DNA of 64,000 bases, taken from the NCBI GenBank assembly GCA_965208835.1, contig OZ242358.1:5116621-5180620 (forward strand). The letters are read 5' to 3'. A model generated the notes under the pieces. That model was given only the letters and a program-made list of their open reading frames with translations, was not told the DNA's origin and searched no databases. This document shows positions 8,307-56,331 of this stretch, piece after piece. Within the stretch, counting starts at the first letter, position 1, and each line of letters opens with the position of its first letter. A program made the position numbers and the translations under genes. Source of the DNA: Candidatus Latescibacterota bacterium (GTDB taxonomy: Bacteria; Latescibacterota; UBA2968; GCA-2709665).

Positions 8307-8712
8307 CGCCGGCAGAATGCCGCCGAATCGGAGGGAGATATGTGGACTGGATGGATTGGGTAGATGCATTGGGATCCAGATCTTCGGAATTTTCTCGCGG
8401 AATGCAGAAAGTGGAGTCTAACCTGATTAATTCAAGAATCGACGGATAATGAATTTCACGGAAGCAGAAAGAGCTTCCGGATGAAACGAGAAACGAAAGA
8501 GCAAGGGCGGTGACGGATTTGGCGCGTTCACGCCGTTTGTATGGTGTGTGCCGGGAACACGATAGCGCCGTGGCGTCAGGTTGCCCTGAATCCCGCTATC
8601 GGAAGCACAAACACCTCCGTGGTTGTTGGTCGTTTCGATGCAAACGTGAAGGCGAGGTCAGCACGTCGATGGGTTATCGAACACCTGTTGCCAGTCTTGA
8701 GAGCTATGTGGG

Positions 8713-12020: not shown

Positions 12021-15000
12021 CTAAGGCGCAATAACAAACACAACGTCTTTCTCCGCCGTTTCACCGCTGTTCCTGTCTTCGATTGATACCTTCAGCGAGT
12101 ATCGGCCCGGAACCTGTTCAGCGAGGTCCAATTCAACATATTCCACTTCCTGTGCCGCCTCCCCCTGCTGTTCGTAGGTGACGGCCAGTTCCTCGCGTAT
12201 CCCGGGTCGCCAGCGGAAGAGGCGGGAGATGTTGCTGGTTGCTCCCGGTATGTCTCTGGATGTGATCGTGTGGGATACAGTGTAATTGGTCTGCCCGAAC
12301 CCGTCTTTCGCCAGGTTGTAGATTTCATAGTACACGAACACGCCCTGGCCTTTCTTGAACGTCCGCGACGGCATTGGAACGACGTTCAGGTCTCCCTTGT
12401 TGAACGGGCTGTCCGCTCTTTCCTCTGCTACCTTCCAGGCCAGTTCCAGGTCGCTGATTTGCAGCCGGTCCTCTCCATACGGCTCCACAACAACCTGCTG
12501 GCTGTAGGCGCCCATGCGTCCTCTGAGCCGGTCCTGCGACCTCACCTCCAGACGGTAGGCGCCGGGCGGCAGGTTCAGCTTCAGCACGCCGGGAACCTGG
12601 ATGCCCTCTCCGGCCTGGTTTCCTTTCGCCTCGTACGTCAATCCATCCGATTGCCGGTAGACCGTGTCCAGCGTGGATGAAATCAGCGCCGCATGGTGCG
12701 TGAGCACCTGACGCGTGACGTTCTCTTCCGAATCGTAGTGGGCAGGCAGGATGGGGACCCCGTAGTAGATTTCCAGGAGGCTGCGGTCATCCTCGCCCCT
12801 GAAGTCAGCCAGTGAATAGTGGAAATCGAGAGGCGCCGACTCCTCTTCCGGCGCATAGTAATTGGGTGTTACACGTGCCGCTCGCTTGTAGATCTCTCTT
12901 GGAGAGTGGGTTCTTAACTTTGCGGTCTGGCCGAGGTCAATGTCACCCCGGTCGGGCGGCATCGGGGCGTATTCGTACGTTCCGGCGCCGAATTCGTCCG
13001 TAAAGGTGATTTCAAGGCCGCCGCCCACGTTTGTATAGATCCACGTTTCCCACGGGATGGTGCTCATGTCTTCGCCGGAAGTAACCGGTTGATAGTTGCC
13101 AAACCCCAGTCGCTTGTCCATATCCATGAGCCCCAGCTTGACGGTATCCATAACGTCCTCCACCGGTACGGGTCCCTCAAACCCTCCACCCCCACCGGAG
13201 AATTCATCCCCACCTCCGGAACTACCGCCTTCGCCGGGCGGTCCCACATTACCCCTACGCGGACCCGGAGTCTCCGCTTCTGGAAACTCGTACCATTCGC
13301 CCTCGAGTCGTCGCTTGCCGCGTATGGGAAAGACCGGCCCCGTAAACGTCTCTCCCATTCCATCGCCGCCGTAGATATTCGCGGCGAGGCGTTCCTTGAC
13401 CCGCTGAACGGCCAGGCTTTGTTTGTAGTTGGGCCGATCCGATCTGGAGCGGTGGTCCGGTTCTCCAAACCGGATGTAGACCTCGCCTCTGATGTCCCAC
13501 GGCTGCTTGTTCTCCGAAAATTCCGTGAGCGCCTGCCAGACACGACGGTAGTGTTCCAGCAGGCGTTCGTTTACCGGCGTGGACAGGTCCGGATCGCGGT
13601 CGTTCCAGAACCGTTTCAGGAATGCGGCCCGTTCACGCTCGGGAGTATCGTTGAATTCGGCCAATTCTTCCGATGACGAGACCAGGCGGATATCTTCGTA
13701 CAAACCACGCTCATCCGGCGCGAGTTTTTTTACGTAGTCCTGAAAGAACTCCATTGCCATGTCGGCCTTTCCCTGCTTCATGGACGCCTGCGCGACGATC
13801 GGCATGAGTTCAATCGCATCGGGGTTCTCCGCGACGAAACCCAGCAGCTTCGCCATGATTTTCTCGTAGTCTTCGATCATCAGGTAGGCGACGCCCAGCC
13901 GGCTGCGCAGACCGGAATCGCCGGGTCTCAGCGCCATATATCGGGTGTACCAGACAATGGCCTGTTCGTAGTCCTTCCAGAAATCGGCGTACCACTCGCC
14001 CATCAGGCGATAGGCGTCCGCATAGTCCGGGTCGAGCTCCAGCACCCGTTCGACCGCGCGGCCCACGTCGTATTCATTCAACTGGTAGCGCATTCTTGCG
14101 ATCTGATATCGGGCGTCCACGTACCCGTGGTCACGGGCAAGGGCCTCCTGGAAATAGTGGATGGCCAGGTTGCGTTCCTTCGGAATCTCCGCGTAGACCA
14201 GACCCACACCGTAATAGGCCCTGGCGCCTCCCTGTAGAGAGATCGCTTTCTTGAAAGCCCACATCGCCCGCTCGTAGTCTTCCGCCTTGTAGTACGCGTG
14301 GCCGAGTTCGATATGGAGAGGCGCGTCCTTCGGGCGCTGGACGGCAACGAGACGGAACAGTCCGGCCGCCTCCCGCAGCCGGTTCTCTCTGGTGCGCTGC
14401 ACCACAACCGCGAAAAGAGAGTCGACCGTCTCGGAACGCATATCCACCGCCTCGAGGCTTCGCGCATCCGGCGTTTGCGTCAGGTGAAGATACCGGTCCG
14501 AGTGCCGGAAACACGCCAGGATTGGCATGCCGGGAGCGGCGTCCGGCCGATATAGATATTCGATCAACGGCTCCGAATCGGAAGTTGTCGGACAGCTGAA
14601 GACAATGTCGAGGACTTCCTTGTCTCGCCTGAGTTCCGGTTCGCTGGACGCCTGCATATCTACGTTCTGTTTCATCCACCCATACAGAACGCTGTGTTCA
14701 TTCGGAAGGGCGCCGTGCTTTTCGGCGTAGCGGTGCGCCAAGTCGTTCAATACGAGCATGTGTTCCAGGCAGGCATGCTCTCCTGCGGCGGCGCCGGTTC
14801 TCAGCTGTTGCTCGCGCAGCGTCGCCACGTACGCGAGGCAGCTTGCTTTCGACATCCGGAGGTCCTTGTGATGTTTATGGAATCCCGCGAACATCCGTTC
14901 AACGGCCTTTCGCGCGTCCTTCTCTCTGTGGCGGTCCGCCCGGTGCACGGCTGAATTCATCCGGCTGATCCGGATCATTCCTCTTTGAAGTTCAGCCAGG

Positions 15001-15905: not shown

Positions 15906-16952
15906 TTATCTGCGGACCATCAGCACGCGAAATCCGGTACGACTTCCTCTCAAGCCCCTCGTCCGCACAGCAGACCGGACTTCAAGGACGTCGTCCAGAT
16001 ACGCCCCCCCCTTGATAACGATAAATTCACCCGGAAATGCGTAACCGGCCAATTCAACGGGCGTGGGTTGATCAGGTCCCCTGGGATCGGTCTGCGGCTC
16101 TCCCGTATAAGGACCGTAGACATCCTGCACCCATTCCCAGACATTCCCGTGCATATCGTACAATCCCCACGGATTCGCAAAAACACCGCCTGTTTCCTGT
16201 GGCTCCGGGTTTCCGTATGCGACAATCCCGTTCTCCAGAACAGTTGCGCTGCGCGAGTTTTCGTAATAGCGCGCGTAACTGCCGACGTGACTGGGGTCGG
16301 CACCAAATGACCACGCCGTTGTTGTGCCAGCCCTGCACGCGTATTCCCACTCCGCCTCCGTGGGCAAACGGAAAATATCCCTCCCTTTTGTTTCGTTCAA
16401 TCTACGGACGAAAGTCTGGACATCCCTCCAAGGCAAATTAAACGCCGGAAAATTCGCCTTTCTGGGGTCTCCTTCGACGCCGGGTGTCGACCACGGTCTC
16501 GTATTCATTACGGCCTCCCACTGCGCCTGCGTGACTTCATATTTACCCAAGTAGAACCCCTTCGTGATCGTGACCTCATGTTGGGGACCCTCATCGTCAT
16601 CTCGACCGGACTCTGAATCGGGCGATCCCATCATAAACCGCCCCGGTTGTATCCACACCATTTCCAGGTCTATCCCTCTCGGAAGCGTTATAGTGATGTT
16701 CTCTTCCGGCATACCTTCGCCAAACCGCTTCGCGAAGAGGATGAAATCCGGAAAATCGACACTTCCGCTGCCATCAAGGTCGAAATTGGACTGATTTGAC
16801 CCGAACGCCTGCGCGAACAGGATGAAGTCCCCGAAGTCCACAATGCCATTGGCGTCGAAATCGGCGTTACGGGAGGCCTGGGCGATCAAATGCTGCTTCG
16901 ACGCCAATAGCGCTCCGACGGCAAGCAACGCGATAATTGCATTTCGTCTCAT
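15906..16952 (-). CDS. Secreted FGE-sulfatase (SUMF1/EgtB/PvdO)-fold protein with N-terminal EF-hand/dockerin-like module, copy 1
   Basis: Signal peptide, 'ADFDANGIVDFGDF...FDLDGSGSVDFPDF', 'FMMGS...EGPQHEV...KYEVTQAQW', 'RLPTEAEWEYACRAGT', 'NPWGLYDMHGNVWEW', terminal 'GFR'. RBS CAGGAGA. Confidence 0.92.
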   Translation of the reverse strand: MRRNAIIALLAVGALLASKQHLIAQASRNADFDANGIVDFGDFILFAQAFGSNQSNFDLDGSGSVDFPDFILFAKRFGEGMPEENITITLPRGIDLEMVWIQPGRFMMGSPDSESGRDDDEGPQHEVTITKGFYLGKYEVTQAQWEAVMNTRPWSTPGVEGDPRKANFPAFNLPWRDVQTFVRRLNETKGRDIFRLPTEAEWEYACRAGTTTAWSFGADPSHVGSYARYYENSRSATVLENGIVAYGNPEPQETGGVFANPWGLYDMHGNVWEWVQDVYGPYTGEPQTDPRGPDQPTPVELAGYAFPGEFIVIKGGAYLDDVLEVRSAVRTRGLRGSRTGFRVLMVRR

Positions 16953-17065
16953 TTTACACAAATCTCCTGCTGGTCAACGAACCACGACGCGTGCGCGATT
17001 CGGTATATGACGTCTCAATGCCCAAGACCATTATCGATAAGGCGATTCACGGCTCCTGATCGAAC
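16953..17065 (-). repeat. Conserved spacer of the tandem FGE array
   Basis: CAACGAACCACGACGCGTGCG...GA(T/C)AAGGCGA(T/C)TCACGG recurs at 18095-18206 and 19257-19376, so gene plus spacer were duplicated as one unit. Confidence 0.85.
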
Positions 17066-18094
17066 TTACCTGTATTCCATCAACAAGCGAAATCCGGTGA
17101 AGTCGTTTGGCACCCACCCGACCGATCGGGAAGCCGACCGTATCCACTCGGGGCGGTCGAAACTGGATCCTCCTCGTTCGACGTGGCTGCCACTAGGAGT
17201 GCGACTTCCAGTGGGACCTTCGGGGCCCCCGGGATCAACCTGCGGCTGTTCTGAGAATGGACCGAAGTAATCCTGCACCAACTCCCGCACATTCCCGTGC
17301 ATATCGTACAGGCCCCAGGGGTTTGGAAATACACTTCCTGTTTCCTGAACCTCCGGGCTTCCATAGGCTATGCTACCGTCATTCCTAACGATCGTCGTTC
17401 GTGAGTTCTCATAATAACGTGCGAAATCGGCGATTCGGGTGGAATCCTCACCGAACGACCAGCGGGTCGTCGTGCCGGCCCTGCACGCATATTCCCACTC
17501 CGCCTCCGTGGGCAATCGGAAGACGTCCTTTCCTTCCGCATCGTTCAGTTTACGGATGAATGTCTCGACGTGCTGCCAGCGCATTCTGTTGGCCGGAAAG
17601 TTCCCCCGGTCCTGAGAAACCGATCCCGTAACCCAGGGACTGGTATTCATTACGCTTTCCCACTGCGCCTGCGTGACTTCGTACTTTCCGAGGTAGAATC
17701 CCTTTGTGATCGTTACCTGATGCTGGGGACCCTCGTGATCCTCCCTACCGGACTCAGAATCGGGCGATCCCATCAGGAACCTTCCAGGCTGGATCCAGAC
17801 CATCGCCAGCTTCACATCGCCGGGAAGCGTTATGGTGATGCTTTCTTCCGGCGCGCCCTCCCCGAACTGCTTCGCAAAGAGAATGAAGTCCGGAAAGTCC
17901 ACGTTCCCGTTGCCGTCTAGATCGAAACCGGATTGATCGGACCCGAACGCCTGAGCGAAGAGGATAAAATCACCGAAATCCACAATACCATTGGCGTCGA
18001 AATCCGCATCACGGGCGGACTGGGCTGTCGCAATCTGTTTCGCAGTCAGCATCGCTGCGAGGGCAAGCAAGCCAATAATTGCATTTCGTCTCAT
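17066..18094 (-). CDS. Secreted FGE-fold protein with EF-hand/dockerin-like module, copy 2
   Basis: Same architecture and motifs as copy 1. Confidence 0.92.
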   Translation of the reverse strand: MRRNAIIGLLALAAMLTAKQIATAQSARDADFDANGIVDFGDFILFAQAFGSDQSGFDLDGNGNVDFPDFILFAKQFGEGAPEESITITLPGDVKLAMVWIQPGRFLMGSPDSESGREDHEGPQHQVTITKGFYLGKYEVTQAQWESVMNTSPWVTGSVSQDRGNFPANRMRWQHVETFIRKLNDAEGKDVFRLPTEAEWEYACRAGTTTRWSFGEDSTRIADFARYYENSRTTIVRNDGSIAYGSPEVQETGSVFPNPWGLYDMHGNVRELVQDYFGPFSEQPQVDPGGPEGPTGSRTPSGSHVERGGSSFDRPEWIRSASRSVGWVPNDFTGFRLLMEYR

Positions 18095-18206
18095 TTCACA
18101 CAGATCTCCTGCTAATCAACGAACCACGACGCGTGCGTGATTCAGCGTATGACGTGCAATGACCGGGACCACTATCGATAAGGCGATTCACGGCACCTGA
18201 TCGAAC

Positions 18207-19256
18207 TCACCTGTATTCCATCAGCAATCGAAACCCAACTCGGTGACTGCCACCTGCGCCGCGAACACGCATCGCCGACCGCATTCTGAGAGCGGTGTCG
18301 AAGTAATAGCCCCCTCTGGCAACATGGAATGACCCCTGCCATCCTGCATTGACATTTTCAAACTCCGCAGGCTCGGGCGGCCCTCTCGGATCGATCTGCG
18401 CCTCTCCTGAATACGGGGCCCAGTAATCCTGAACCCATTCCAACACATTCCCGTACATATCGTATAGGCCCCACGGATTCGGCAATACGCTTCCCGTCTC
18501 CTGAGGCTCCAGGCTGCCGTAGACCACGCGGCCGTCCGGCATCAACGTCGCATTCCGCGAGTTCTCACGATAGCGGGCATAATCGCCGATACGGCTCGAG
18601 TCGGCTCCGAAAAACCACGTCGTCGTAGTGCCTGCCCTGCACGCATATTCCCACTCCGCCTCCGTCGGCAACCGGAAAATGTCCTTTCCTTCCGCCTCGT
18701 TCAATCTCCGAATGAATGACTGTATCCACTCCCAACGCGCGCTGCGAGCCGGGTATCTTGTCTTCTCGAGTTCATCGGTTGCTCCGAACCGCTCCCACGG
18801 ACGCGTATTCATCACGCTCTGCCACTGCGCCTGGGTGACTTCGTATTTACCGAGGTAAAACCCCTGAGTAATGGTAACTTCGTGCTGAGGACCCTCGTCA
18901 TCCCGGCGCCCCGGCTCTGTATCGGGCGATCCCATCAGAAAGCGGCCGGGCTGGATCCAGACCATCGCCAGCTTCGCGCCGCCTGGAAGCGTCACAGCAA
19001 TATTCCTTTCGGGTGCGCCCTCCCCGAACTGCTTCGCAAAGAGAACAAAGTCCGGAAAGTCCACATTCCCGTTGCCGTCGAGATCGAAACCGGATTGATC
19101 GGACCCGAACGCCTGAGCGAAGAGGATAAAATCACCGAAATCCACAATGCCATTGGCGTCGAAATCCGCGTCACGGGAGGGTTGGGCGATTACAATCTGT
19201 TTCGCAGTCAGCATCGCGCCAAGGGCAATCAAGCCGATAATTGCATTTCGTCTCAT
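18207..19256 (-). CDS. Secreted FGE-fold protein with EF-hand/dockerin-like module, copy 3
   Basis: Same architecture; the N-terminal module is nearly identical in DNA to copy 2. Confidence 0.92.
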   Translation of the reverse strand: MRRNAIIGLIALGAMLTAKQIVIAQPSRDADFDANGIVDFGDFILFAQAFGSDQSGFDLDGNGNVDFPDFVLFAKQFGEGAPERNIAVTLPGGAKLAMVWIQPGRFLMGSPDTEPGRRDDEGPQHEVTITQGFYLGKYEVTQAQWQSVMNTRPWERFGATDELEKTRYPARSARWEWIQSFIRRLNEAEGKDIFRLPTEAEWEYACRAGTTTTWFFGADSSRIGDYARYRENSRNATLMPDGRVVYGSLEPQETGSVLPNPWGLYDMYGNVLEWVQDYWAPYSGEAQIDPRGPPEPAEFENVNAGWQGSFHVARGGYYFDTALRMRSAMRVRGAGGSHRVGFRLLMEYR

Positions 19257-19376
19257 TTCACACAAATCTCCTGCTTGTCAACGAACCACGACGCGTGCGG
19301 GATTCAGCATTCGGCGTACAATGCCTCAATGCCCGGGACCAATCCCGACAAGGCGACTCACGGATCTATACTGATT

Positions 19377-20414
19377 TTACCTGTTTTCCATCAACAAGCG
19401 AAATCCGGTGAGGATATTCCGGCGCCAACCACGGTATCTGACAGCCGACCGTATCGCTATAGGGCGATCTTGGTACGATCCCCCTCTCTCAACGTGGCTG
19501 TTATGCGGTGCTTGTCCTTCAGTCGGCCACGCAGGACCCTTCGGATCGATCTGGGGCTCGTCTGAGTACGGACCGTAAAAATCCTGCACCCACTCACGTG
19601 CGTTCCCGTGCATATCGTATAGCCCCCACGGGTTCGGAAAGACGCTACCCGTCTCCTGTGCCTCAGGGTTTCCATACGCTATGCTACCGTCATCTCTGAC
19701 GATCACCGCCCGTGAGTTTTCGTTATAACGTACGTAATCCGCGATGCGGGTCGAATCCTCACCGAACGACCAGCGGCTCGTCGTACCGGCCCTGCAAGCG
19801 TATTCCCATTCCGCTTCCGTCGGTAATCGGAATATATCACTTCCTTCTGCTTCGTTTAATCTGCGAATGAAGCCCTCAACGTCTTGCCAGTCCATGTTGA
19901 CCGCTGGAAATTTGCCTTTCGTCTGATCTTCTGCAACGCCAGCCCAATTCCAGGGGCGGGAGTTCATTACGCTCTCCCATTGAGCCCTTGTCACTTCATA
20001 TTTGCCGAAATAGTATCCTGTTGTGATAGTTACTACACGCTGGGGGCCCTCATCCTCATTTCGACCCGACTCAGAATTTGGCGATCCCATCAGGAACCTG
20101 CCGGGTTGGATCCAGACCATTTCGAGTTTCGCACTGCCTGGAAGCGTTACCGTAACGTCCTCTTCCGGCGCACCCTCACCAAATTGCTCAGCAAATAGGA
20201 TAAAATCCGGAAAATCGACGATTCCGTTGCCGTCAAGGTCGAAATTGGATTGCTCAGACCCGAACGCCTGCGCGAACAGAATGAAATCTCCGAAATCCAC
20301 AATGCCATTTGCGTCGAAATCCGCATTACCTGCGGATTGGGCTGTCAGAAGCGGCGTTGAAGCCAACAGCGTTCCAAGGGCGACGAACAGGGTTATGGCG
20401 TACCGTCTCACCAT
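19377..20414 (-). CDS. Secreted FGE-fold protein with EF-hand/dockerin-like module, copy 4 (first in transcription order)
   Basis: Same architecture; start 'MVRRYAITL' at 20414. Confidence 0.92.
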   Translation of the reverse strand: MVRRYAITLFVALGTLLASTPLLTAQSAGNADFDANGIVDFGDFILFAQAFGSEQSNFDLDGNGIVDFPDFILFAEQFGEGAPEEDVTVTLPGSAKLEMVWIQPGRFLMGSPNSESGRNEDEGPQRVVTITTGYYFGKYEVTRAQWESVMNSRPWNWAGVAEDQTKGKFPAVNMDWQDVEGFIRRLNEAEGSDIFRLPTEAEWEYACRAGTTSRWSFGEDSTRIADYVRYNENSRAVIVRDDGSIAYGNPEAQETGSVFPNPWGLYDMHGNAREWVQDFYGPYSDEPQIDPKGPAWPTEGQAPHNSHVERGGSYQDRPIAIRSAVRYRGWRRNILTGFRLLMENR

Positions 20415-20642
20415 TTCCAGGATGCCTTCAAACCGCCTGGTGCAGGTATATGTGAGCGCCAAAGTTCAGGTTTCCAGTGACCGACAGTCTTTACTATGCA
20501 CAAGCACAGTGACTCGTCAATTCTATAAAATAAATTCATTTGAAATATTAATCAAGGTTCAGCGAAATCGACCGGGTTCAATGAATTGGTCTGCGGAAGG
20601 AGCCGGACAACAGGCCGCGGGCCTTCCCGAACGCCTTGATCT

Positions 20643-27855: not shown

Positions 27856-30207
27856 CTATTCAACCACACGGAACACTACGTCCCGTTCAGCGGTCTGACC
27901 GGTGTAGAGGTCCTTCACAGCAACGACCAGCTTGTGGAAACCCGCCGGGGCGCTGCTGGCATTGATCTGCAGGAATGTGAAGTCATCGTTCTTATATCCC
28001 TGGTAACGTGCTGTAACAGTAGTTTCCGCTCCTTTACGCAAACGAGACGCTGCTTCGATCTCCTCGGAAATCTTATTGCGTTCCGGCAGGATGTACTTTA
28101 CTCGATAACTCACGGACGGCTGTGCCTGACCACTATCCTTAGTGTCCCCTACGATAGTCTGAATCTCCGTGACGGCACCCTCGCCCGGTACGTCCAGAGC
28201 GGCGAAGCGTTCCGGGAAAATTTCATCCGGTTTCGGCTGCGTTAATCGGTAGGAAATCCGGTATTTGGTTCTCCCGAATCGGTCCTTTCTCAGATTGTAA
28301 ATCTCAAGATAGAGAAAGACCGGCTCCGAACGCCCGTAGGTGTGTAGGGGATTTGGCGTGACCCGAAGATCTTCACGACCCTCGGGAAAGGCCGATTTTG
28401 GCTCAATCCCAGAAGCCAATAGTAGATCGCTCATCGCCACTAACGAGTCAGTCTCCCGAAATACCAGCCGTTCGTGAAAGGTCCCTATCGATCCAGTGCC
28501 ATGGTCCCGAACCTCCACTACGAGACGGTGCGGCACCGGCGAGACACGCAGCGTTCGGAATGACACAACATGGTTGCGCCTTAAACTTTCACTCTTTGTC
28601 CTTTTCCTTGTGTCGAAAACTGGCCACCGCATGGTCACGCCCATCTTCTTCCGATATACCTCATTCCAGTAATCATTGAAAATAAACACCCCATCATCCA
28701 AGTCCAGGAATCCACCGGGATCTGAAACCTGCACGCGCGCCTTAGGGATGGCGTAGGCGAACTCGACGCGAATACTGTCACGCTCCCTGAAAGCGGCGAC
28801 TTGGCGCGGCATCCGATATTTCACGTCACTATAGGGGTCAACGTAACGCTGTGGTGTATTTTGAAATACCTGTCGTGCGTGTGGCCGCGTTCCTTTCAAA
28901 CGTTCCCGTCGGCTTTTTCCCGAATAAAAGTCTCCCAGATCATCTCGCATCCTTGTAATCTTGACTGCACTCTTACCCACACACACCCAATAGTCCTTCG
29001 TCGATTCTCTCGCACTCCTTCCTGTATTCGATCCTCGCGCAAAACGCCAGGCGTCCAAACCGTCACCGTTCTCGAACCAAATGCGAAACTTCCCATAATT
29101 CCAAACCTTCCAGTTGGTAAAGACATCTCGACCTATATATCGTCCGAATTTGATGAACGCTTTCCCCGGATCAGTCTGCCACCCCATGATGCCCTTGAAA
29201 GGGCGGGAAAACCTGAGATTTGCGTAAGCAACCCGCCCGTAGTGTTCCATCTTTCGTTCATTGAATTCCGTCAGAAACAGGGGATCCTGCTTGCGCCAGA
29301 AGCTTTCGACACTGTCATTTGTCCAAATCTCACTTCCATTGTGATCGATTGTAACCGCCTGAGCCATACGTCTCGTTTCTTCCTTTGACGCGATAATGTC
29401 CACCGACTCCATCAAGGATCGCTCTTCGACGGTCATTCGTTCAATGGCTCGCCGGTAATAGTCATAAGCTACGTCCATTTCACCGAGCATATGATAGCCA
29501 AGACCACAGAACAAGAATGCATCCTTGTCATCGGGAAATTGTCTCAAAAGACGCTTGAACAGCAATACCAACGCTTCCGGTTCTCCAGTCTCGACATGGA
29601 GGAGTCCCATCATTTTGTACGCGCCTTTAAATCCAGGATCCGCTTCAATGCTTTGCCTCAAAAGCCCGTGCGCGCGTTCCACGGCTCTTTCGGCGAAACC
29701 CTTCCAGTAGAACACATGAACATCACGAGATTTTTTGAAGGAGACGAATTCCTTTTTATCGATCAACGCGAGATACTCCTGTACCGCGAAAAATCCCGCC
29801 CGGTACGCACCTTCTGCATTGCCTGTGTGAATACTTGCCATCTTTTGAAATTGTCGTCCCGCATTGTACGTGAATCCCTGCCTGCTCAGCAACTCACCCA
29901 TTGTCAACTGGTATTCGCTGTTCGACGGATCAATCCGTATGGCCTCGTTCAGCGCGTTACGTGCGCTCTGGCGCGTAAGTGGCGTGTTCATTTCGTTGTA
30001 CAGTTTTGCAATCTGATAGTGCGCTGGCGCGAATTCCCAGTCCAGCTTAAGGACCTGCTCAAATGCGTTGATACCCTCCTTCGGTGGTACCTGGCCGATC
30101 TGAGTCAATGCTTCGCGATAGAGCGAGTCCACTCGCGCAGACTTTGACAAGGCGAGTACATCGCTTGCCGACTGGAACATTAACATTGAGACCAATAGAT
30201 GTCTCAT
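27856..30207 (-). CDS. Exported GWxTD-domain/TPR protein, short subtype (B1)
   Basis: Signal peptide, TPRs, 'FWRKQDPLFLTEFNERKMEHYGRVAYANLRFS...GWQTDPGKAFIKFG' (canonical GWxTD). RBS GGAGGAG. Confidence 0.9.
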   Translation of the reverse strand: MRHLLVSMLMFQSASDVLALSKSARVDSLYREALTQIGQVPPKEGINAFEQVLKLDWEFAPAHYQIAKLYNEMNTPLTRQSARNALNEAIRIDPSNSEYQLTMGELLSRQGFTYNAGRQFQKMASIHTGNAEGAYRAGFFAVQEYLALIDKKEFVSFKKSRDVHVFYWKGFAERAVERAHGLLRQSIEADPGFKGAYKMMGLLHVETGEPEALVLLFKRLLRQFPDDKDAFLFCGLGYHMLGEMDVAYDYYRRAIERMTVEERSLMESVDIIASKEETRRMAQAVTIDHNGSEIWTNDSVESFWRKQDPLFLTEFNERKMEHYGRVAYANLRFSRPFKGIMGWQTDPGKAFIKFGRYIGRDVFTNWKVWNYGKFRIWFENGDGLDAWRFARGSNTGRSARESTKDYWVCVGKSAVKITRMRDDLGDFYSGKSRRERLKGTRPHARQVFQNTPQRYVDPYSDVKYRMPRQVAAFRERDSIRVEFAYAIPKARVQVSDPGGFLDLDDGVFIFNDYWNEVYRKKMGVTMRWPVFDTRKRTKSESLRRNHVVSFRTLRVSPVPHRLVVEVRDHGTGSIGTFHERLVFRETDSLVAMSDLLLASGIEPKSAFPEGREDLRVTPNPLHTYGRSEPVFLYLEIYNLRKDRFGRTKYRISYRLTQPKPDEIFPERFAALDVPGEGAVTEIQTIVGDTKDSGQAQPSVSYRVKYILPERNKISEEIEAASRLRKGAETTVTARYQGYKNDDFTFLQINASSAPAGFHKLVVAVKDLYTGQTAERDVVFRVVE

Positions 30208-30564
30208 TCCAGTGAGTCTCCTCCGATGTCTCGAGGCATTCGAGCCGCCCGGCTTTCTAATACCAAGTAGGCCCCCTTGAATTGCTAACGCATCCCGGGC
30301 TGTCTGCTATTGCATGAATCGACATTTCATCCATGAAATTCGAACCGGCATTCACAACAGGCTTCCGAGTACACCAAACCCACGTGAATTCGTCCCGCTT
30401 CCATTAGCTTCCATTATAAAAAGACACACGCCGCGCTGGGCGGGTTCAATTAACCTGAGATCTGCCCTCGGACAGAAGACCCCTGCATCCTCCAGTCGTT
30501 GCGTGACGCCTTAACCTCTTGAATTCCCGTCGGAATGGCTGGTCGCTCGGCCTTCTTCAGCACT

Positions 30565-30580
30565 TGCAATCTTCGTACCA
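30565..30580 (-). promoter_or_regulatory. sigma54 (RpoN) -24/-12 promoter
   Basis: Minus strand TGGTACGAAGATTGCA matches TGGYACG-N4-TTGCW with exact GG-N10-GC spacing and points into the GWxTD cluster. Confidence 0.85.
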
Positions 30581-30627
30581 GACTCCATAATAAAAATCGC
30601 CTGTGCGGTTACGCACAAGCGAAATAA

Positions 30628-30640
30628 AATCAATATCTTA
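30628..30640 (+). promoter_or_regulatory. IHF binding site
   Basis: AATCAATATCTTA is an exact match to WATCAANNNNTTR, sits in AT-rich context, and lies between the palindromes and the -24/-12 box. Confidence 0.65.
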
Positions 30641-30677
30641 TGAATTCACATTTTACGCTTTTTTGAAGCGTTCAATT

Positions 30678-30704
30678 CATGATGTATACATTGTATACAT
30701 CATG
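30678..30704. promoter_or_regulatory. Candidate upstream activator sequence 1 (27-bp palindrome)
   Basis: CATGATGTATACA-T-TGTATACATCATG with perfect 13-bp arms; core TGT-N11-ACA. Confidence 0.7.
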
Positions 30705-30805
30705 GTCTTTTAGATGTTGCTCCTCCTGAATCGTCCGTGTGTAGAATACTAAGTTGCAAGTTCTTACAGCTCACGCAACACTGTCTACAGTGTCACGCCC
30801 GTAAC

Positions 30806-30822
30806 TGTATACAATGTATACA
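30806..30822. promoter_or_regulatory. Candidate upstream activator sequence 2
   Basis: TGTATACA-A-TGTATACA is the exact reverse complement of the UAS1 core (30683-30699). A related palindrome ACACTGTCTACAGTGT lies at 30778-30793. Confidence 0.65.
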
Positions 30823-30845
30823 TATGCTTGCCTTGAATTCGTACC

Positions 30846-33800
30846 TTACCTCAGACCGTACCGGCTCATCATCTTTTGCAGTCCGTTTCGACTCAGCCCC
30901 AGTTGGCGCGCGGCGCGGGTGATGTTCCCGTCGCACTGATTGAGCGCTTCGACGATCATCCGCCTCTCGAGGGACGCGACACGGGACTTGAAATAACTCC
31001 CATCACCTGACCGGAGTTGCTCGGGAAGCCCGATTCTTTCTGAGAACAGATCGGCGGAGACGTCTTTGCCTTCCTCCACCAGCGCAACCGCGCGCCTTAT
31101 CTCGTTCTCCAGTTCCCGCACGTTGCCCGGCCACCCGTGATCCATCAACGCCCGCATGGCCGCTACCGTGAAACCCGGAACCGCCTTATTCTGGTCCGCG
31201 CAAAGACGGTTCACAATGTGTTCGCATAACAATGGAATGTCTTCAATGTGGCGGCGCAATGGGGGCATTTCAATCTGCAACACACGCAGTCTGTAATACA
31301 GATCCTCCCGAAAAAGGCCGTTGCGCACATCAGCTTCCAAATCACGATTCGTCGCCGCGATCACCCGCACGTCCACGTTTCGTACCTCTGCCTCGCCCAC
31401 CCGCTGGATTTCCCCGTCCTGAAGCACCCGCAACAGGCTCGATTGGAGCTGTGCGGATGCGTTTCCAATCTCGTCCAGGAAGACCGTGCCGCCGTCCGCG
31501 GATACGAACAATCCCTTCCGGTCCGACGACGCCCCGGTAAAAGCGCCCTTCCTGTGTCCGAACAGTTCGCTCTGAAGCAGCTCGTGGGTCATTGCGGCGC
31601 AGTTGGCGGAGAGAAACGGCTTCGCCTTGCGTTCGCTCCGGCTATGGATAGCCCGGGCAGCCAGCTCCTTGCCCGTACCCGTCTCACCCTGTATGAGCAC
31701 GGTCATGTCGCTTTCAGCCGCAACTTCCACCAGCTTGAAAACCTCCTGCATAACGTCGCTCTGCCCAACGAGTTCTCCCAGGCGGTAGCTTTCCCCGGTC
31801 TGTTTCTGCAAGAAAAGCGCACGTTCCTGGATCCGGGAGTACATCCGGGCGTTGACAACCGCAATGGACACCAGGTTCCCAAACGCCGACAAAAGGGCGC
31901 GGTCTTTTTCGGTAAACAGATCCTCGAGCTCCCTGTGGTCCATGTAGAGCGCGCCGATAACGCCAGATTCCCCGTGCCGTAGCGGTACGCACAGAACCGA
32001 ACGGATGCCGTAATCGGTAACACTCGACCTCTGCCTGAATCGTTCGTCTACTCGAGCGTCCAGGCTCAATACCGGCTCGTTTCGCTCCATCGTCCACTTG
32101 ATGATTCCCCGGCTGATCTCGTGCGTTTCGACATCGTCGAGGTTATGCCTTCGCGCCACTTCGACGTGAACAGTGTCCTCGTCCTTTAACGCAATCAACA
32201 CGCGTTCGGCCCGGCTCACCTTCCTCAAGCGGTCCAGAATCCGGTCCAGAAGCACGTTCAGGTCCAGGACCGACGTCAAGACCTCGGAAGCCTGGTAAAG
32301 CGTTAGCAGATGTTTCTCGGAAAGCGCGGGAGCCATCTCCTTTGCGGGAAGCGTTAATGCAGATTGCTCTGAAACCCGATCCAGAAGATCCGCCGCCTTC
32401 CCGGCAAGATAGCGCAGACTCAGCCGCTCGGCAGCCCCGCGGGCGTCTTCCAGGTACCGCCGGGCGTCGGCAAGACGACACCGCTCCAGATAGTAAGCGC
32501 CCGCTACAACGTACAGAATTACTTGCTCATGACCGTCCAGCGAGCCCTGGGCTTCCGATACATGATCGAACAGGGAATCGACATCGTCATGCCGGCCGGC
32601 CGCGGCAAGCGATTTTGCCTTCGCGGTCCATGCCATGGCGCGAATATTTCCGCCGTACTCCACGCCCGGCCAGGCCCGTTCGGCCCAGGAAAGCGCCTCT
32701 TCAACGCAGCCGGTCTCAGCCAGCGTCTCGGCCAGCAATCCGTAGGACCGGTACACATGATGCATGCGCCCGCCATCCGACAATAAGCGCTCAGCAGATC
32801 GAGCATGCGTTTCGGCACTAGCGGTGTCTCCCTGTTCCAGGGCGATCCAGCCCAATCGATGATGTGCTCCGGCCTCCGTAGACTTCGAACCTCGCCTGGC
32901 CCAGAAGTCTCGATGTTCCTGGAATATCTCCTTCGCACGATCGAAATTTCCCAGTCGGATCTCTATACGTCCCAGCAGGAAAAGACTGCCATGGCGATTG
33001 GACCGATCCCCTGCCCTGTCCATCAGATCCAATGAAGACTCAAGGAGCGTCCTGGCTGTTTCATTCCGATAGGTAAACTGTGCCGAAAACGCGAGATAAT
33101 TCAAGGCACGCGCCTCATTGACGTCCCCTCCCAATTCCCGGCATCTTTCAGCGGCTGACTCACAAAATCTCTCGGCTGTTTTCAATTCCCTCAGCTCAAA
33201 GTAGATATTGGACAATAACCCCACAACACTCATTTCAGACTCGTCGTCGCCCAATTCTCGGAAGAGACCCAGGGCCTCCGACAACACGGATTCGGCCTCT
33301 TCATAATCCCCGAAATGGATGTGGTTTATTCCCATCATCCTCAACGCGTACGCTTTCTGCCGCGGTGCATCGGCGGACACCCACCGCATGACGTGATCCA
33401 ATTCGCGCCGAGCGTCCTTGTACCGGTCACAACCGGAGAGCGCCTCGGCGTAGGCGCAGAGGAAATCCAGGTGCGCCACCGACCCGCGAGAAACGCCGGC
33501 CGGCGCGTCGGGTGAGAATGCGCCTTTTTCAAGAATCGCTTCGAACAGCTCCAGGGCGTGCGAAAAGTCCCACATCCGCAACGCCATTCGGCCGGATGCC
33601 GTTACGTACTGTGCCATTTTTTTCAGGTCGTTCGATCTCGAGAAGTGGTAAGCCAGTTCATCAAGCGTCTCCAAGCCGCCGGACTCGGAACGAGTCTCCA
33701 GCGCCCTGCCTGCCTCCAGGTGAAGTAACGTACGTCTGTTCTCGGATATGCCGTCATAAACCGCCCGTTGAATCAATCCATGAGAAAAACGATACCGTCC

Positions 33801-35732: not shown

Positions 35733-36059
35733 AGTTAACCCGGCGAAAATTCTCCTGCGTACACGATACCAAAATCGTTCACGTTCTCTCTAATTACCCA
35801 TCATGGATTTGTCGCAAGTGCCCACGCAATTGTGACCGTCGAGAATAGGGAACTGTATGGTTCGAGAATCCAATCAACGATGAGCATTCAACCCCTTCGA
35901 ACCCTCACCGTATCGGCCGGGGGATGGGCGGTCTGACAGATGATGGCTGAGAGCCGACAGCTTTTAGACCTTACAATAAGACTTCAACGCAAGATGCGTA
36001 CATACTCAGAAAATGCTGCTCGCATACCGTATGGTGTTGTCATCCCCCCACCGCATCAG

Positions 36060-36185
36060 CCGTCACCGGCCCTTCGACACTCCTTCGGCCCTTCGACAAG
36101 CTCAGGGACCGGAGGCTCAGGACAACCGCTCAGGGGACAGCTCGGCTTCTGCGACTCCCCCTCAAGGGGGGAGTGATTGGACGAT
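36060..36185 (+). repeat. Composite REP-like element (CTTCGACAAGCTCAGG units + GACTCCCCCTCAAGGGGGGAGT hairpin)
   Basis: Homologous to 23110-23235 (inverted) and to 9880-10085. Confidence 0.75.
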
Positions 36186-36309
36186 CAGACCGGCGCGCGC
36201 GTTCCCTGCCACCGATTTGGTTGTGGCTGAGCAACGCGAAGCCGCGCCAGTTGAAACTGACCTGGTATCCATCGAGGTCGAGACGCCCGGTCAGGTTGCC
36301 GATCAACAA

Positions 36310-39366: not shown

Positions 39367-39569
39367 TACCTGCCAGGCTTTATCCTTGCAATAAACCGCC
39401 GCTGTTCCTCCTGCGACAACGGACGGTTTTTCACGGTACGAATGTCTTCATCTATCTGCAAAGACCGCGCCAGAAAAGGGTCTTCCATATCTTCTTGAAT
39501 CACGTCTTCAGGACGCTCGCCACGTCTGACCCGCTCAATCAACCTCATTGCGACATCGACAACTCCCAT
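39366..39569 (-). CDS. Putative antitoxin (67 aa)
   Basis: 'MGVVDVAMRLIERVRRGERPEDVIQEDMEDPFLARSLQIDED...', RBS GGAGG, translationally coupled to the RelE-like gene. Confidence 0.55.
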   Translation of the reverse strand: MGVVDVAMRLIERVRRGERPEDVIQEDMEDPFLARSLQIDEDIRTVKNRPLSQEEQRRFIARIKPGR

Positions 39570-39674: not shown

Positions 39675-40034
39675 TGGTGGAGGCGGCGGGAATCGAACCC
39701 GCGTCCGAAAGCAGATCAACGACAGCGTCTACGTGTGTAGTTTACCTTTTGAATCTCACGTGCGGGCGCCCCGGTAAACGGGGTTGCCGGCACGCCAGTT
39801 CAATCAACTCTCGCTCACGGACCCTCGAACGGAGGTCCGCGAGCCAGCCCGCATAAGTCGGCGCTCCGGTCGGGCCCTGCGGGCGAAGCCCGTCGGAACG
39901 GACTGCGTTTTAGTTACGCAGCCATTGCGTACGTATCGTCCGCAATTATAGAGTGTTCCCACAGTTTAACGAGGACATGGGACCTCGACACGCAGCCATC
40001 GCCTCTCCACCCCCGTCGAATCCAGGTCGCCCCC
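39675..40034 (-). ncRNA. ssrA: tmRNA
   Basis: 5' GGGGGCGACCTGGATTCGAC and 3' GGTTCGATTCCCGCCGCCTCCACCA, acceptor stem with G3-U pair. Tag frame 39943-39914 after ATAATT encodes (A)ADDTYAMAA*. Confidence 0.97.
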
Positions 40035-41059: not shown

Positions 41060-43507
41060 CTACATGTTGAATCGTAGACCGACACTCGGCAAAATGGGCT
41101 GTAATAACACATCCTGTACCAGAACTTCCGGCTCGGTCGCATCGAACGAGCGATACCACACGTTACGCCGGTTGTAGACATTGAACACGCTGAACACCAG
41201 CTCCCCTTCGACGCCGCCCAGGTTTATTTCACGCGTGACGCCAAGATCGAGCCGATGATAGGCCGGCAGCCGGTAGGCGTTCTTTTCCGAAACATGGACG
41301 TAGGGTATGGTCTGTCCTGTAGGCTGTTGCACCTCATAACGCGCCTCCGGGATCGTATAGGCCTGTCCTGTGCCATATACCCAGTTCAAGTTTAGGTTCC
41401 AGCCTCTGCCCACGTAATAGTCGGTCACCAGGGAAAGGTCATGACGTCGATCGTACTTTGGCGGAAACGGTTCGCCATGATTCAGGTCCGCAAATGTGTG
41501 CTCCGTTTTGCTCAGGGTGTATCCGATCCAACCCTTCAGGCGCCCTTCCGTCTTCCGAAGCAGGATCTCTCCGCCGTAGGATGTGCCCGATCCCGTCACA
41601 AACAGGTCGGAGAGGGGTGTGGAGTCGTCAAGACGCACCTGAGACTGGAATTCCACGAGGTCCTCGAGTTCCTTGTGATAATACTCCAGATCGACCTGCC
41701 ATCCTTCGTTTGGCGTCAACATGAGGCCGAATGCGCTGTGAACGGCTTTGCCCGGCGTCAGGGTCTCGTCCACCGGCAGCCACATATCCGTCGTGTACGT
41801 GTTGGCTTCTATCGAAATCAGGTTGACGAACTGGTGGTAAATGCCCCAGCCGCCCTTGAACGCGAACTTCTCATCGAGTTGGAACAGTCCCGTCGCGCGC
41901 GGCGACCATCGGGTATAATCGCCGCTGTTGAAGTGACTCACGCGAATCCCGGGCGTCAGTTCCAGACGACCCAGGCGCATCACATGCTCGAGGTAGCCCG
42001 TCTGGTACAGCGACGCGGTATTGATTCCCGTACGGATCGAATCGCCCACACCCTGCCGGTAAAAGGCGTCGTAGGCCGTGAGTTGGGCGCCGAAACGCGT
42101 GGTGTGATAGGGGCCCGAATAGAGGTCGAACGTCGCCTTCGCCGTGACGTCGTTCAGCTCGTTGTTGCGATTCAGCCCGAATCCACGCCCCTGGCGGCCC
42201 TCTCCACCTTGCCCCGCCTGATCGGCGTTCTGGTTCGTCGCGACGTCGAAATTCGAGATGTATCGGCTTGCCGAAATCTGGACGTTGCCGATCAGGTTGT
42301 CGGCGTAGATGCGCTGCCATTTGAACCGCGCGATCTGGTTGCCCCAGTCCATGAGTTGTTCTCGCGTCTGCTGGCGAAACGACGGCAGGGATAGATCCAG
42401 CGCGTCACGGCCCGCGTAGCCGCTGATGGAAATGCTGTTATTGTCCGACACGTCCAGGTTCAGCTTGAAATTCGTATCGTAGAATCCGTAGTCCTGATCG
42501 AAGTCGCCTGTCTGCTGTTGAAAGTTGAATCTCGTCCCTCCAAACCGCCCGCCGCCAAACCCGCCGCCGCCGAATCGGGGCGGCCCGCCGCCAGCGCCAG
42601 GGCTCGCCGAAATCGTGCCTATCCGGGTGCTGAACATCTCGTCTACCAAGTGGCTGAAAAGCGGCGACTCCAGGACCTCCTGGTAGGTACGTCGACCTGA
42701 CAGCATCCAGGATCCGCGATCGCCCACGGGTCCTTCGATCGTCAGACCCGCGCTGATGAGGTCCATGGATCCTCTGGCATCCAGAGATTTCCGGTTGCCG
42801 TCGAGGTTCGTAATATCGAGTACGCTCGACAGCCGGTCGCCGTACCGCGCGGGAAATGTGCCCTTGATTAATGTCACGTCCTTCAGCGCATCGGGATTAA
42901 ACGTGCTGAAGAAGCCGAACAGGTGGTTCGGGTTATAGACGACCACGTCGTCGAGGAGAATCAGATTCTGTCCGGGCGTGCCCCCCCGAACGTACAGCCC
43001 CGCGGAATTCTCATTGCCTGCCTGAACTCCGGGAAGAAGCTGAATGCCACGCATCAGATCGGGCTGCCCCACCGTTGGAATGCGCGCCAGTTCGGTGACG
43101 CGGGTGCCGAACGCGCTAACCGGTGTCAACTCTGTCGTCGCGACGCGGTCTCCTACGACTTCTATTTCGTCAATCGTCAACTCCACGGGATCCAGCTCGA
43201 TCACCACCCTCGCGGTCTCGACCGACTCAATGACGACGTCGACGGATCGACTGGTGTAACCTATGAAGCTCGCGGAAATGACGTGTCCGCCCGGCGGGAG
43301 ATTCCCGATAACAAAGTAACCGGACTTATCCGTGGACACCCCGATGTTCAGACTGTCGATCACGACGTTGGCATTCGGCAATGTTTCACCGTCTGTGGCG
43401 TCGCGCACCGTGCCGCGTACCGACCCGAGCCCGTAGGCCTGCGTACTGAAGCTCAACGCCGATACACAAAAAACCATCGATAAAATCCGTCTCACACGCG
43501 CCTCCAT
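41060..43507 (-). CDS. TonB-dependent outer-membrane receptor with N-terminal carboxypeptidase-regulatory-like domain
   Basis: Signal peptide, 'GTVRDATDGETLPNANV...SFIGY', plug 'QLLPGVQ...LYVRGG...NPNHLFGFFSTFN', 'RLPAYHRLDL', 'FNVYNRRN'. Confidence 0.92.
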   Translation of the reverse strand: MEARVRRILSMVFCVSALSFSTQAYGLGSVRGTVRDATDGETLPNANVVIDSLNIGVSTDKSGYFVIGNLPPGGHVISASFIGYTSRSVDVVIESVETARVVIELDPVELTIDEIEVVGDRVATTELTPVSAFGTRVTELARIPTVGQPDLMRGIQLLPGVQAGNENSAGLYVRGGTPGQNLILLDDVVVYNPNHLFGFFSTFNPDALKDVTLIKGTFPARYGDRLSSVLDITNLDGNRKSLDARGSMDLISAGLTIEGPVGDRGSWMLSGRRTYQEVLESPLFSHLVDEMFSTRIGTISASPGAGGGPPRFGGGGFGGGRFGGTRFNFQQQTGDFDQDYGFYDTNFKLNLDVSDNNSISISGYAGRDALDLSLPSFRQQTREQLMDWGNQIARFKWQRIYADNLIGNVQISASRYISNFDVATNQNADQAGQGGEGRQGRGFGLNRNNELNDVTAKATFDLYSGPYHTTRFGAQLTAYDAFYRQGVGDSIRTGINTASLYQTGYLEHVMRLGRLELTPGIRVSHFNSGDYTRWSPRATGLFQLDEKFAFKGGWGIYHQFVNLISIEANTYTTDMWLPVDETLTPGKAVHSAFGLMLTPNEGWQVDLEYYHKELEDLVEFQSQVRLDDSTPLSDLFVTGSGTSYGGEILLRKTEGRLKGWIGYTLSKTEHTFADLNHGEPFPPKYDRRHDLSLVTDYYVGRGWNLNLNWVYGTGQAYTIPEARYEVQQPTGQTIPYVHVSEKNAYRLPAYHRLDLGVTREINLGGVEGELVFSVFNVYNRRNVWYRSFDATEPEVLVQDVLLQPILPSVGLRFNM

Positions 43508-55616: not shown

Positions 55617-55913
55617 ATGCACGTTATCACACGCAAGAGACTCCTGGAATTCTGGAGAAAGCATTCGGATTCCCAGAGGCCCCTGAAAGCCTGGCTGGCC
55701 ATCGTAAGGTCAAAAAGCTATCTCAGCCCCTACGAAGTTCGACGTGACTTTCCTTCTGCGAGTTTCCTCGGAGGAACGCGAACGATTTTCAACATCGGAG
55801 GCAACAAATACAGGCTGATTGTCGATATGCGGTACGACCTCGGGAGGATCTACATCCGACACGTGCTTACACACGAAGAATACAACAGAAGATCTCGAAT
55901 TGGCGACTTATAA
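55617..55913 (+). CDS. higB: HigB-family toxin (mRNA interferase)
   Basis: 'MHVITRKRLLEFW...FPSAS...IFNIGGNKYRLI...LTHEEY'. Confidence 0.92.
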   Translation: MHVITRKRLLEFWRKHSDSQRPLKAWLAIVRSKSYLSPYEVRRDFPSASFLGGTRTIFNIGGNKYRLIVDMRYDLGRIYIRHVLTHEEYNRRSRIGDL

Positions 55914-56331
55914 ACAACCTGCAAAGGCGTTGGATATGACCAGTTTGCTGGACTTCTCAAAACCACATGTGTTGCGAAACGAAGCCGAATACGACGCGGC
56001 CGTATGTGAAATCGACGGCCTGTTGGATGCCGATCCCGAACCGGGTTCAGAAGCATACGAGCGCCTGGAGTTTCTTTCCGTTCTGGTACAGGCTTACGAA
56101 GACGTCCGGATTCCCCTCGATGAAACGTTGGAGCCCAAGGAGATCGTGGAGTTCATGCTGGAACAGAAAGGACTCTCGCGAACGGATCTCGCCGAATGGC
56201 TTGGTGGGAGAAGCCGCGTTTCCGAATTCTACAACGGCAGGCGAACCCTGTCCATTCGGCAGATCAGGCGCCTCACCGAAAACCTGGGCATCCCTGCGGA
56301 CTTGCTGATCGCGCGTGACAAGAATCGTTGA
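55900..56331 (+). CDS. higA: HigA-family antitoxin (HTH_3)
   Basis: 'RNEAEYDAA...LVQAYE...FMLEQKGLSRTDL...SRVSEFYNGRRTLS...IPADLLI'. Start TTG 55900 or ATG 55936. Confidence 0.9.
   Translation: MATYKQPAKALDMTSLLDFSKPHVLRNEAEYDAAVCEIDGLLDADPEPGSEAYERLEFLSVLVQAYEDVRIPLDETLEPKEIVEFMLEQKGLSRTDLAEWLGGRSRVSEFYNGRRTLSIRQIRRLTENLGIPADLLIARDKNR

Follow-up and report, generated by a model that had tools for sequence, protein, structure and literature searches.

Analysis of a 64,000-nt stretch of contig OZ242358.1 from a Candidatus Latescibacterota bacterium (hereafter, the window) revealed a compact sigma-54 enhancer-promoter unit directly behind the gene for a large multidomain sigma-54 activator. 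The unit consists of two copies of a 17-bp palindrome, an A/T-rich tract carrying a match to the integration host factor (IHF) consensus, an intrinsic-terminator-like hairpin, and a -24/-12 promoter. By analogy with known enhancers, we consider it probable, with odds of roughly 60%, that this unit belongs to the activator gene directly upstream and that the adjacent activator binds the dyads. The cis layout is canonical, and what is gained is a handle rather than a new principle: the conserved, sharply bounded 300-bp enhancer-promoter provides a concrete fragment and motif for first experiments on an unstudied family.

Both the palindromes and the promoter are exceptional within the window, to which all motif expectations and shuffle counts (100 shuffles) refer. 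The 17-mer TGTATACAWTGTATACA has exactly two matches even when three mismatches are allowed (0.01 expected; two matches reached in none of the shuffles), and these two copies, with their palindromic halves, were found at -137 and -260, where the original prediction from the same DNA had placed them. Positions of the palindromes and of the IHF match are counted from a predicted transcription start at about 30554, which follows from setting the -12 position at C30566. All four TGTATACA octamers of the window lie inside the two palindromes (0.14 expected), and the degenerate core GTMKAC-N3-GTMKAC, which is the conserved part of the dyad form TGTATAC-N3-GTATACA, is matched in the window only at these sites (0.07 expected). 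The distal palindrome begins 24 nt past the activator stop codon, in agreement with the predicted location of the elements directly 3′ of that gene, and its center is 123 bp from that of the proximal palindrome, which in the window extends to 27 bp (30678-30704). The predicted -24/-12 box was likewise recovered: TGGTACGAAGATTGCA, with its GG and GC at canonical spacing, is the sole exact match to TGGYACGNNNNTTGCW (0.02 expected; 2 of 100 shuffles contain one). Relaxed -24/-12 patterns occur at six other places compared with 2.97 expected; we rejected these and the one-mismatch patterns as further sigma-54 promoters, since they appear at about chance frequency and none is accompanied by dyads. 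One relaxed match, TGGCGCGGTCTTTGCA at 39457-39472, lies just downstream of a tmRNA gene (39675-40034, minus strand; tag peptide ADDTYAMAA).

We next compared the unit with its counterparts in other genomes. A genome-contig scan returned 32 loci, nine of which (L001-L009, whose records are titled as Candidatus Latescibacterota or Gemmatimonadota metagenome-assembled genomes (MAGs) or as uncultured bacterium) carry full-length orthologues of the activator with 65-91% identity. Together with the window they form a set of ten loci; the remaining 23, which encode unrelated bacterial enhancer-binding proteins (bEBPs) or kinases, served as controls. The ten were aligned over the interval between the stop codon and the promoter, both included, and mean pairwise identity was calculated for eight non-redundant loci, leaving out L005 and L006, which duplicate L003 and the window, respectively, in this region. 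Identity was 87.7% for the promoter, 84.9% for the proximal dyad, 78.0% for the terminator, 74.2% for a third block located between the palindromes, 69.3% for the distal dyad, and 64.1% for the IHF tract. The values for comparison were 41.6% for the remaining spacer, 40.9% for the sequence behind the promoter, and, over the last 500 activator codons, 54.9% at fourfold sites. The footprint is one of sharply conserved islands within a poorly conserved spacer. Phylogenetic footprinting downstream of orthologous activators, which had been suggested as a check on the original prediction, bore it out: in all ten loci the activator is inherited together with the proximal palindrome and the -24/-12 box at a preserved spacing, with dyad and promoter conserved far above both the spacer and the fourfold sites. 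The distance from the aligned C-terminus or stop codon to the promoter GG is 267-275 bp in every locus, and the GG and GC are invariant, with the full promoter pattern exact in six of the ten.

The palindromes are symmetric sites 110-240 bp upstream of the promoter and are conserved in sequence as well as position (85% and 69% versus 42% in the spacer). The proximal dyad is present in all ten loci (center -108 to -114 relative to the first G of the GG), its variants carrying one to four mismatches, and the most divergent form is TGTCGACATTGTCTACG in L008. The distal dyad was found in seven loci, centered at -235 to -237 from the GG. In L003 and L005, four of five half-sites have changed together from ACA/TGT to ACG/CGT. 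A symmetrized position weight matrix (PWM) built from seven distinct proximal sites scored the distal dyads at 22-29 bits. When applied to the 245,607 bases of the window and its nine orthologous loci, it gave 17 hits of at least 19 bits, all at the two palindrome places; ten of these are training sites, so that only the seven distal hits are independent. The best hit in the control loci (323,733 bases from the 23 other loci) reached 12.1 bits. The original prediction had missed a third, degenerate copy of the motif. This block, whose center is 33 bp from that of the distal dyad, reads as one and a half half-sites and is complementary to the distal copy; in five of the ten loci, no other position between the palindromes has a higher PWM score (-202 to -204), although the scores are low at 0-11 bits.

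Outside the unit, the motif is scarce. Judged by sequence, the regulon looks local, with no further strong copies in the approximately 246 kb of the window and orthologous loci, and no PWM hit of at least 8 bits that might indicate autoregulation was detected upstream of the activator gene (35733-36309). A motif-like 17-mer at 41173-41189 (15.5 bits), located at the 3′ end of a TonB-receptor-like open reading frame (ORF) just before a DUF4249 gene, recurs at the same place in L003 (15.5 bits) and L004 (18.3 bits). We set this match, 10-11 kb upstream and scoring 15-18 bits, aside as a further site because it probably reflects coding conservation.

The activator encoded next to these sites has the features expected of a sigma-54-dependent regulator. 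Pfam detected Pkinase (residues 14-233; 1.4e-46), AAA_16 (309-470; 8.7e-32), GAF (1157-1292; 1.3e-17), Sigma54_activat (PF00158; 1321-1488; 4.6e-71), and, after the AAA lid, HTH_8 (PF02954; 1586-1625; 2.5e-11), as well as a MalT-like tetratricopeptide repeat (TPR) match below the cutoff (PF17874; 4.3e-09). In the translation, the kinase carries HRDLKPSN, the STAND part GEAGIGKS, and the sigma-54 module GETGTGKE, GAFTGA and FLDEIG; the adjacent protein therefore combines a sigma-54-interaction AAA+ domain (Walker A/B and GAFTGA) with a C-terminal helix-turn-helix (HTH). Its C-terminal module is nearest to those of NifA, NorR and ZraR: NifA (TIGR01817) is the best NCBIfam match (residues 1140-1561; 6.8e-115; 384.8 bits versus a cutoff of 528.85), and the closest solved chain to the AAA+ plus HTH_8 module is ZraR 1ojl (2.2e-85; query residues 19-323 of 327).

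Proteins of this kind form a large family. Both PF00069 and PF00158 are listed for 116 of the 120 best protein matches; the other four (P0040, P0042, P0044 and P0045) are shorter proteins. Among these best matches, P0001-P0039 are 61-99% identical to the activator, and the next group has at most 49% identity. Where named, the relatives are annotated as ‘sigma 54-interacting transcriptional regulator’ or ‘protein kinase’ of Gemmatimonadota or Candidatus Poribacteria MAGs. Several contigs each encode two proteins of the kinase-STAND-TPR-GAF-sigma54-HTH architecture; in the window and the L001-L009 flanks, we detected no second paralogue. All ten loci, and also the 37 listed proteins with at least 61% identity and a preserved C-terminus, have the same recognition helix, LSRNGLQK(M/K)M, which reads ITRAGLQKKIN or MTRVGLHKKIN in paralogues at about 42% identity. 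In full-text literature, we found no description of this architecture, no paper on GWxTD proteins, and no sigma-54 activator named for these sites; as most subscription journals were outside the search, this is weak evidence.

Some family members end differently. P0001 and P0007 have C-termini that stop before or inside the recognition helix; in P0001 (1611 residues, 99% identical), a 14-residue unrelated tail replaces the HTH after ...RRMIVEALD, which may reflect a frameshift, a misassembly or a naturally HTH-less form. In L032 (5254-9792), from a Myxococcota MAG, the related frame stops at 8350-8352 after the kinase-STAND-TPR part, and the GAF-AAA+ part comes separately behind it, which makes this a split or frameshifted form. 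L032 was dropped as an outgroup for the layout because its frame ends after the STAND/TPR part and is hence not comparable. The activator ORF is six codons longer in L001, L003, L005 and L007 (NDTNSE, EKANSE, NDMNSQ), with the distal dyad about 9 nt past the stop; in the window, the bases homologous to this extension follow a TAA.

A second element that the original prediction had overlooked follows the IHF-like tract and precedes the -24 box: a conserved hairpin of 11 pairs (seven of them G-C) with the loop TAAC followed by TTTTTATTAT. Its RNA fold has a free energy of -19 kcal/mol (z -4.7). Pairing is maintained in 95.7% of cells in nine distinct rows of the alignment; U-G, U-A and C-G alternate at two pairs, and at the basal pair both partners have changed (A-U or G-U for U-A). 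The element thus presents a G+C-rich stem-loop and a U-run on the same strand downstream of the gene, with the pairing kept in relatives. Because U-G pairs work only in RNA of the minus strand, we read the hairpin most simply as the predicted intrinsic terminator of the activator gene. Its position downstream of the dyads would place these in the transcribed 3′ untranslated region (UTR) of the activator. The features of the unit and its neighbors are summarized in the table.

Table. Predicted features of the enhancer-promoter unit and its flanking genes, in window coordinates (UAS, upstream activating sequence).
Feature	Position	Strand	Remarks
Activator gene, 1628 aa	30846-35732	-	Pkinase, AAA_16, TPR, GAF, Sigma54_activat, HTH_8 (Pfam)
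Distal 17-bp palindrome (candidate UAS 2)	30806-30822		Center ~-260; exact motif match, kept in 7/10 loci
Third, degenerate motif copy	30773-30789	-	Conserved 14-nt block TGTAGACAGTGTTG at 30776-30789, center ~-227
Proximal 17-bp palindrome (candidate UAS 1)	30683-30699		Center ~-137; kept in 10/10 loci
Small hairpin, ACGCT-N7-AGCGT	30655-30671	-	Covariation; also predicted by RNAalifold
IHF-consensus match in conserved A/T-rich tract	30628-30640	+	Center ~-80
Intrinsic-terminator-like hairpin and T-run	30587-30622	-	Hairpin 30597-30622; ends ~7 nt before -24 element
Sigma-54 promoter TGGTACGAAGATTGCA (-24 GG, -12 GC)	30565-30580	-	Exact consensus, conserved
Predicted leader, ~346 nt	30208-30553	-	First downstream start codon at 30207
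First gene behind promoter, 783-aa TPR/GWxTD-domain protein	27856-30207	-	Pfam TPR; NCBIfam TIGR04514, 50 bits versus cutoff 28

These features suggest the following model. Dimers of the C-terminal Fis-type HTH of the activator would bind the dyads, and assembly of its AAA+ ring would be controlled by the kinase-STAND-TPR-GAF part. DNA bent by IHF or by the A/T tract would bring the ring to the sigma-54 holoenzyme, where ATP hydrolysis through the GAFTGA loop would open the promoter. The activator transcript would pass through the dyads and stop at the intrinsic terminator just before the -24 element; this would put the enhancer in the 3′ UTR of the activator and insulate the target promoter from read-through. 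The unit would drive whichever gene lies behind it, and that gene varies by genome.

The case for the adjacent activator is made by its co-inheritance with the sites, a UAS distance typical of such regulators, a dyad geometry suited to a Fis-type HTH, the nearness of its module to NifA, NorR and ZraR, the sequence-level conservation of the dyad core, the concerted half-site change in L003 and L005, and the lack of another regulator gene beside the site. A Pfam domain scan of the 36 window ORFs of at least 120 residues detected no other transcription-factor gene beside the site, the sole other HTH belonging to an HTH_3 protein some 25 kb distant (55819-56331). No Sigma54 factor domain was detected among the same 36 ORFs, which cover the 64-kb window only.

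Several observations weigh against this assignment. Of the claim that the site is the operator of the adjacent activator, the co-inheritance held up, but what ties the dyads to the activator itself is adjacency and analogy only. Because the recognition helix is invariant, covariation between regulator and operator cannot be shown. Helical phasing is not strictly kept, as the proximal center moves by up to 6 bp among loci. In three of the ten loci, the distal site has been changed or lost: L008 and L009 have degenerate versions, and L004 has another dyad, TGCAGACGTTATCTGCA, which shows two symmetric compensatory changes. The IHF site fared only partly as predicted. An exact match is present at about -80; however, the consensus AATCAATATCTTA is not above chance by itself (two matches in the window versus 1.35 expected, a number reached in 36 of 100 shuffles), and only two of the ten loci match it exactly, the near-identical pair formed by the window and L006. 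Six other loci show one or two mismatches at the aligned place, and L008 and L009 show one or two mismatches one base off; by this comparison, only the A/T-rich tract is truly conserved.

Structural features of the palindromes also count against the assignment. Outside the 17-mer, flanks with unrelated sequences lengthen the proximal palindrome differently in four lineages, to 27 bp in the window, to 35 bp in L001, by GATGA/TCATC in L002, and by CAGA/TCTG in L003, and the flanks alone covary (0.357 versus 0.157 in shuffled alignments, 0 of 500; slid controls at most 0.19). In the RNAalifold prediction, the distal dyad pairs with the third block; 87.2% of cells are paired, both partners have changed at six pairs (0 of 500 shuffles), and the covariation is 0.311 versus 0.219, above slid controls of at most 0.123. 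This covariation of the flanks and of the distal/third-block helix hints at RNA hairpins of a 3′ UTR, of which it would also be expected. Finally, each 17-mer contains, once and perfectly, the 10-mer ATGTATACAT (30814-30823 and 30682-30691), which is the operator of a GntR-family repressor (PMC7797058).

The structural features raise the alternative that the palindromes act mainly as RNA, their likeness to UASs being secondary. The distal arm with the third block, the proximal hairpin, the small hairpin, and then the terminator would form 3′ UTR stem-loops that set mRNA stability, processing or termination. All palindromes do lie upstream of the conserved terminator on the activator's strand, and the 261-nt 3′ UTR has a predicted fold of -81.5 kcal/mol (z -6.2). 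Besides the two covarying elements described above, the small hairpin covaries (78.3% of cells paired; five of six pairs changed on both sides; 0.415 versus 0.215 shuffled, 0 of 500), and the dyad of different sequence at the distal place of L004 is still able to form a hairpin. Nevertheless, we find this explanation unlikely. Copies of one palindromic motif are complementary by construction, and pairing among them cannot separate an RNA structure from a shared protein specificity. In the 17-mer cores, which are conserved in sequence, both-sided change occurred in just one of seven core pairs; the small hairpin and the dyad flanks nearby vary freely with compensation, which argues for sequence-specific recognition of the core. 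An RNA role would leave unexplained why the 17-mer occurs twice, why its halves are self-palindromic, and why the intergenic length is fixed. Minimum-energy folds of the 3′ UTR vary among orthologues, and no Rfam family was matched: at the gathering score, the whole window yielded the tmRNA only, and a search of 30100-30900 with E values up to 1 added two sub-threshold chance hits. Moreover, template switching at quasi-palindromes can lengthen palindromes without selection. As the motif copies are complementary by construction, the folds differ and template switching can extend palindromes, we keep an RNA role as a possible second function of the palindromes, not their main one.

A second alternative is that the palindromes are operators of another protein encoded elsewhere, such as a GntR/FCD-type repressor, that would modulate the promoter or else the activator gene at its 3′ end. 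One dimer would bind each 8-10-bp palindrome, and a tetramer could cover one 17-mer. A GntR-type regulator had been named as a possible rival in the original prediction, and a precedent does exist: the tetrameric GntR/FCD repressor Atu1419 from Agrobacterium fabrum binds ATGTATACAT (PMC7797058), and this 10-mer, which each of our 17-mers shares, fits the operator form (N)yGT(N)xAC(N)y. In addition, self-palindromic halves are not needed for a single bEBP dimer, and where one half has changed to GTCGAC, in L008, it is self-palindromic still. Nonetheless, no GntR-family gene was detected among the 36 window ORFs, and the sites are co-inherited with the activator in all ten loci. L004 and L003 keep the 17-bp dyad while self-symmetry at the level of the halves is broken. 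Unlike the Atu1419 palindromes, which in the accessible part of that report overlap the -10 box or sit between the -10 and -35 elements (PMC7797058), the sites described here are 110-240 bp upstream of the only recognizable promoter and do not overlap it. We therefore judge such an operator to be quite improbable. Chance juxtaposition of motif matches without a regulatory role, to which the IHF consensus and the relaxed -24/-12 patterns at chance frequency could be ascribed, is practically negligible given expected counts of 0.01 for the palindrome pair and 0.02 for the exact promoter box, and conservation well above fourfold-site identity in nine further genomes.

We also examined the genes that the promoter would control. 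In the window, the 783-residue TPR/GWxTD gene heads a long co-directional cluster encoding three TPR proteins, two of them with a GWxTD match (that of the 783-residue protein above the NCBIfam cutoff, and that of a 1256-residue protein by Pfam, below the cutoff), four FGE-sulfatase-domain paralogues, another GWxTD protein, and two Kelch proteins. The tandem FGE-sulfatase (SUMF1-like) paralogues (342-361 residues; 15906-20462, minus strand) are flanked by the GWxTD/TPR and Kelch-repeat proteins, and at least three of the four share a repeat-bearing N-terminus. Synteny upstream is conserved (SBP_bac_5, DUF4249, and a TonB-type receptor). The first gene behind the promoter varies: it encodes different TPR/GWxTD paralogues in the window, L001, L002, L003, L005, L006 and L007. 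In L004, an ORF for a DDE_3 (IS630-like) transposase with HTH_32/HTH_29 domains (13605-14690) is inserted ahead of the first TPR gene, separating it from the promoter. The two loci that diverge most, L008 (13486-14958) and L009 (13481-14968), have a radical-SAM gene in first place, preceded by a leader of about 350 nt; the L008 protein also has a PqqD domain, like maturases of ribosomally synthesized and post-translationally modified peptides (RiPPs).

Collinear similarity to the window ends at +14 past the GG in L006, +111 in L002, +160 and +162 in L001 and L007, and +703 in L003 and L005. The ending of similarity soon behind the GG argues that activator, enhancer, terminator and promoter form a stable unit. 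Within the leader, a block around TTGAACCCGCC...GTGTCTTTT (window ~30430-30470, minus strand), about 130-190 nt past the promoter, is shared by six loci (the window, L001, L003, L004, L006 and L007) that differ in the early leader or in the downstream gene. The leader matched no Rfam family, and a conserved RNA fold was rejected, as the RNAalifold prediction for five leaders (-7.5 kcal/mol) had one compensated pair and lent no support to a consensus structure. We also looked for leader repeats shared upstream of the window's three paralogous TPR/GWxTD genes, as possible mediators of cargo exchange, and discarded the idea for want of convincing similarity.

More tentatively, the activator, enhancer, terminator and target promoter may constitute one co-inherited cassette, in which the palindromes are dual, serving as DNA sites and as RNA hairpins, and which forms a fixed head for exchangeable cargo. 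The balance of probability is against this broader proposal. If it were true, transcription of the activator would run through its own enhancer and could clear it, coupling activator synthesis to target firing, and the cassette would form the border of a set of recombining repeat-protein genes. If, moreover, the many paralogues of the family are constructed alike, each gene would have a private operator directly 3′ of it.

Two further observations concern the surroundings. Five of the 22 TGAATTC matches in the window cluster within 456 bp (30385-30840) at four places, with GAATTCA on the minus strand at 30840, 30648, 30526 and 30391; one of the four is the palindrome TGAATTCA beside the IHF match. 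We found no explanation for this cluster. Elsewhere in the window, an IS1595-family transposase ORF is followed by a directly adjoining N6/N4 DNA methylase ORF (2206-4712, plus strand).

Comparison with known systems places this unit close to, yet apart from, several of them. NifA binds UASs of the consensus TGT-N10-ACA, and the nifH layout consists of a UAS, an IHF site and a -24/-12 promoter; classical NifA and NtrC enhancers work with an IHF-assisted loop. The activator resembles NifA in the GAF-AAA+-HTH order of its C-terminal module, and the unit does so in having TGT...ACA dyads separated by an IHF-like tract from a -24/-12 promoter that lies about 100-250 bp downstream. Nonetheless, its score falls short of the equivalog cutoff, its dyad is a 17-bp TGT-N11-ACA, and its targets are TPR/GWxTD, transposase-interrupted or radical-SAM genes rather than nif genes, from all of which we conclude that, by sequence, the activator is not a NifA. 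It also differs in having about 1140 extra N-terminal residues (kinase, STAND NTPase and TPRs).

Likewise, the activator shares with NtrC/ZraR-type bEBPs an AAA+ plus HTH_8 module, nearest to ZraR 1ojl in the PDB, and 17-bp dyad sites, NtrC sites having a 7-3-7 geometry; two strong dyads and a weaker one would suit assembly of a hexamer from dimers. In contrast to those proteins, it has no receiver domain and its half-site sequence is unrelated, and control presumably comes from the fused kinase-STAND-TPR-GAF part. MalT is a STAND-type activator that works with sigma-70 through a LuxR-type HTH. The order of an AAA_16 NTPase followed by a MalT-like TPR sensor (the PF17874 match below the cutoff) is similar in our activator, and by this analogy it is plausible that ligand-driven oligomerization on several sites, as in MalT, controls assembly of the ring; the output part, however, combines a sigma-54 AAA+ domain and an HTH of the Fis type. 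Relative to all of these, the unit stands out in two respects: an enhancer located 3′ of the activator gene and ahead of the activator's own terminator, which again sets it apart from NifA, and the exchangeable cargo behind its promoter.

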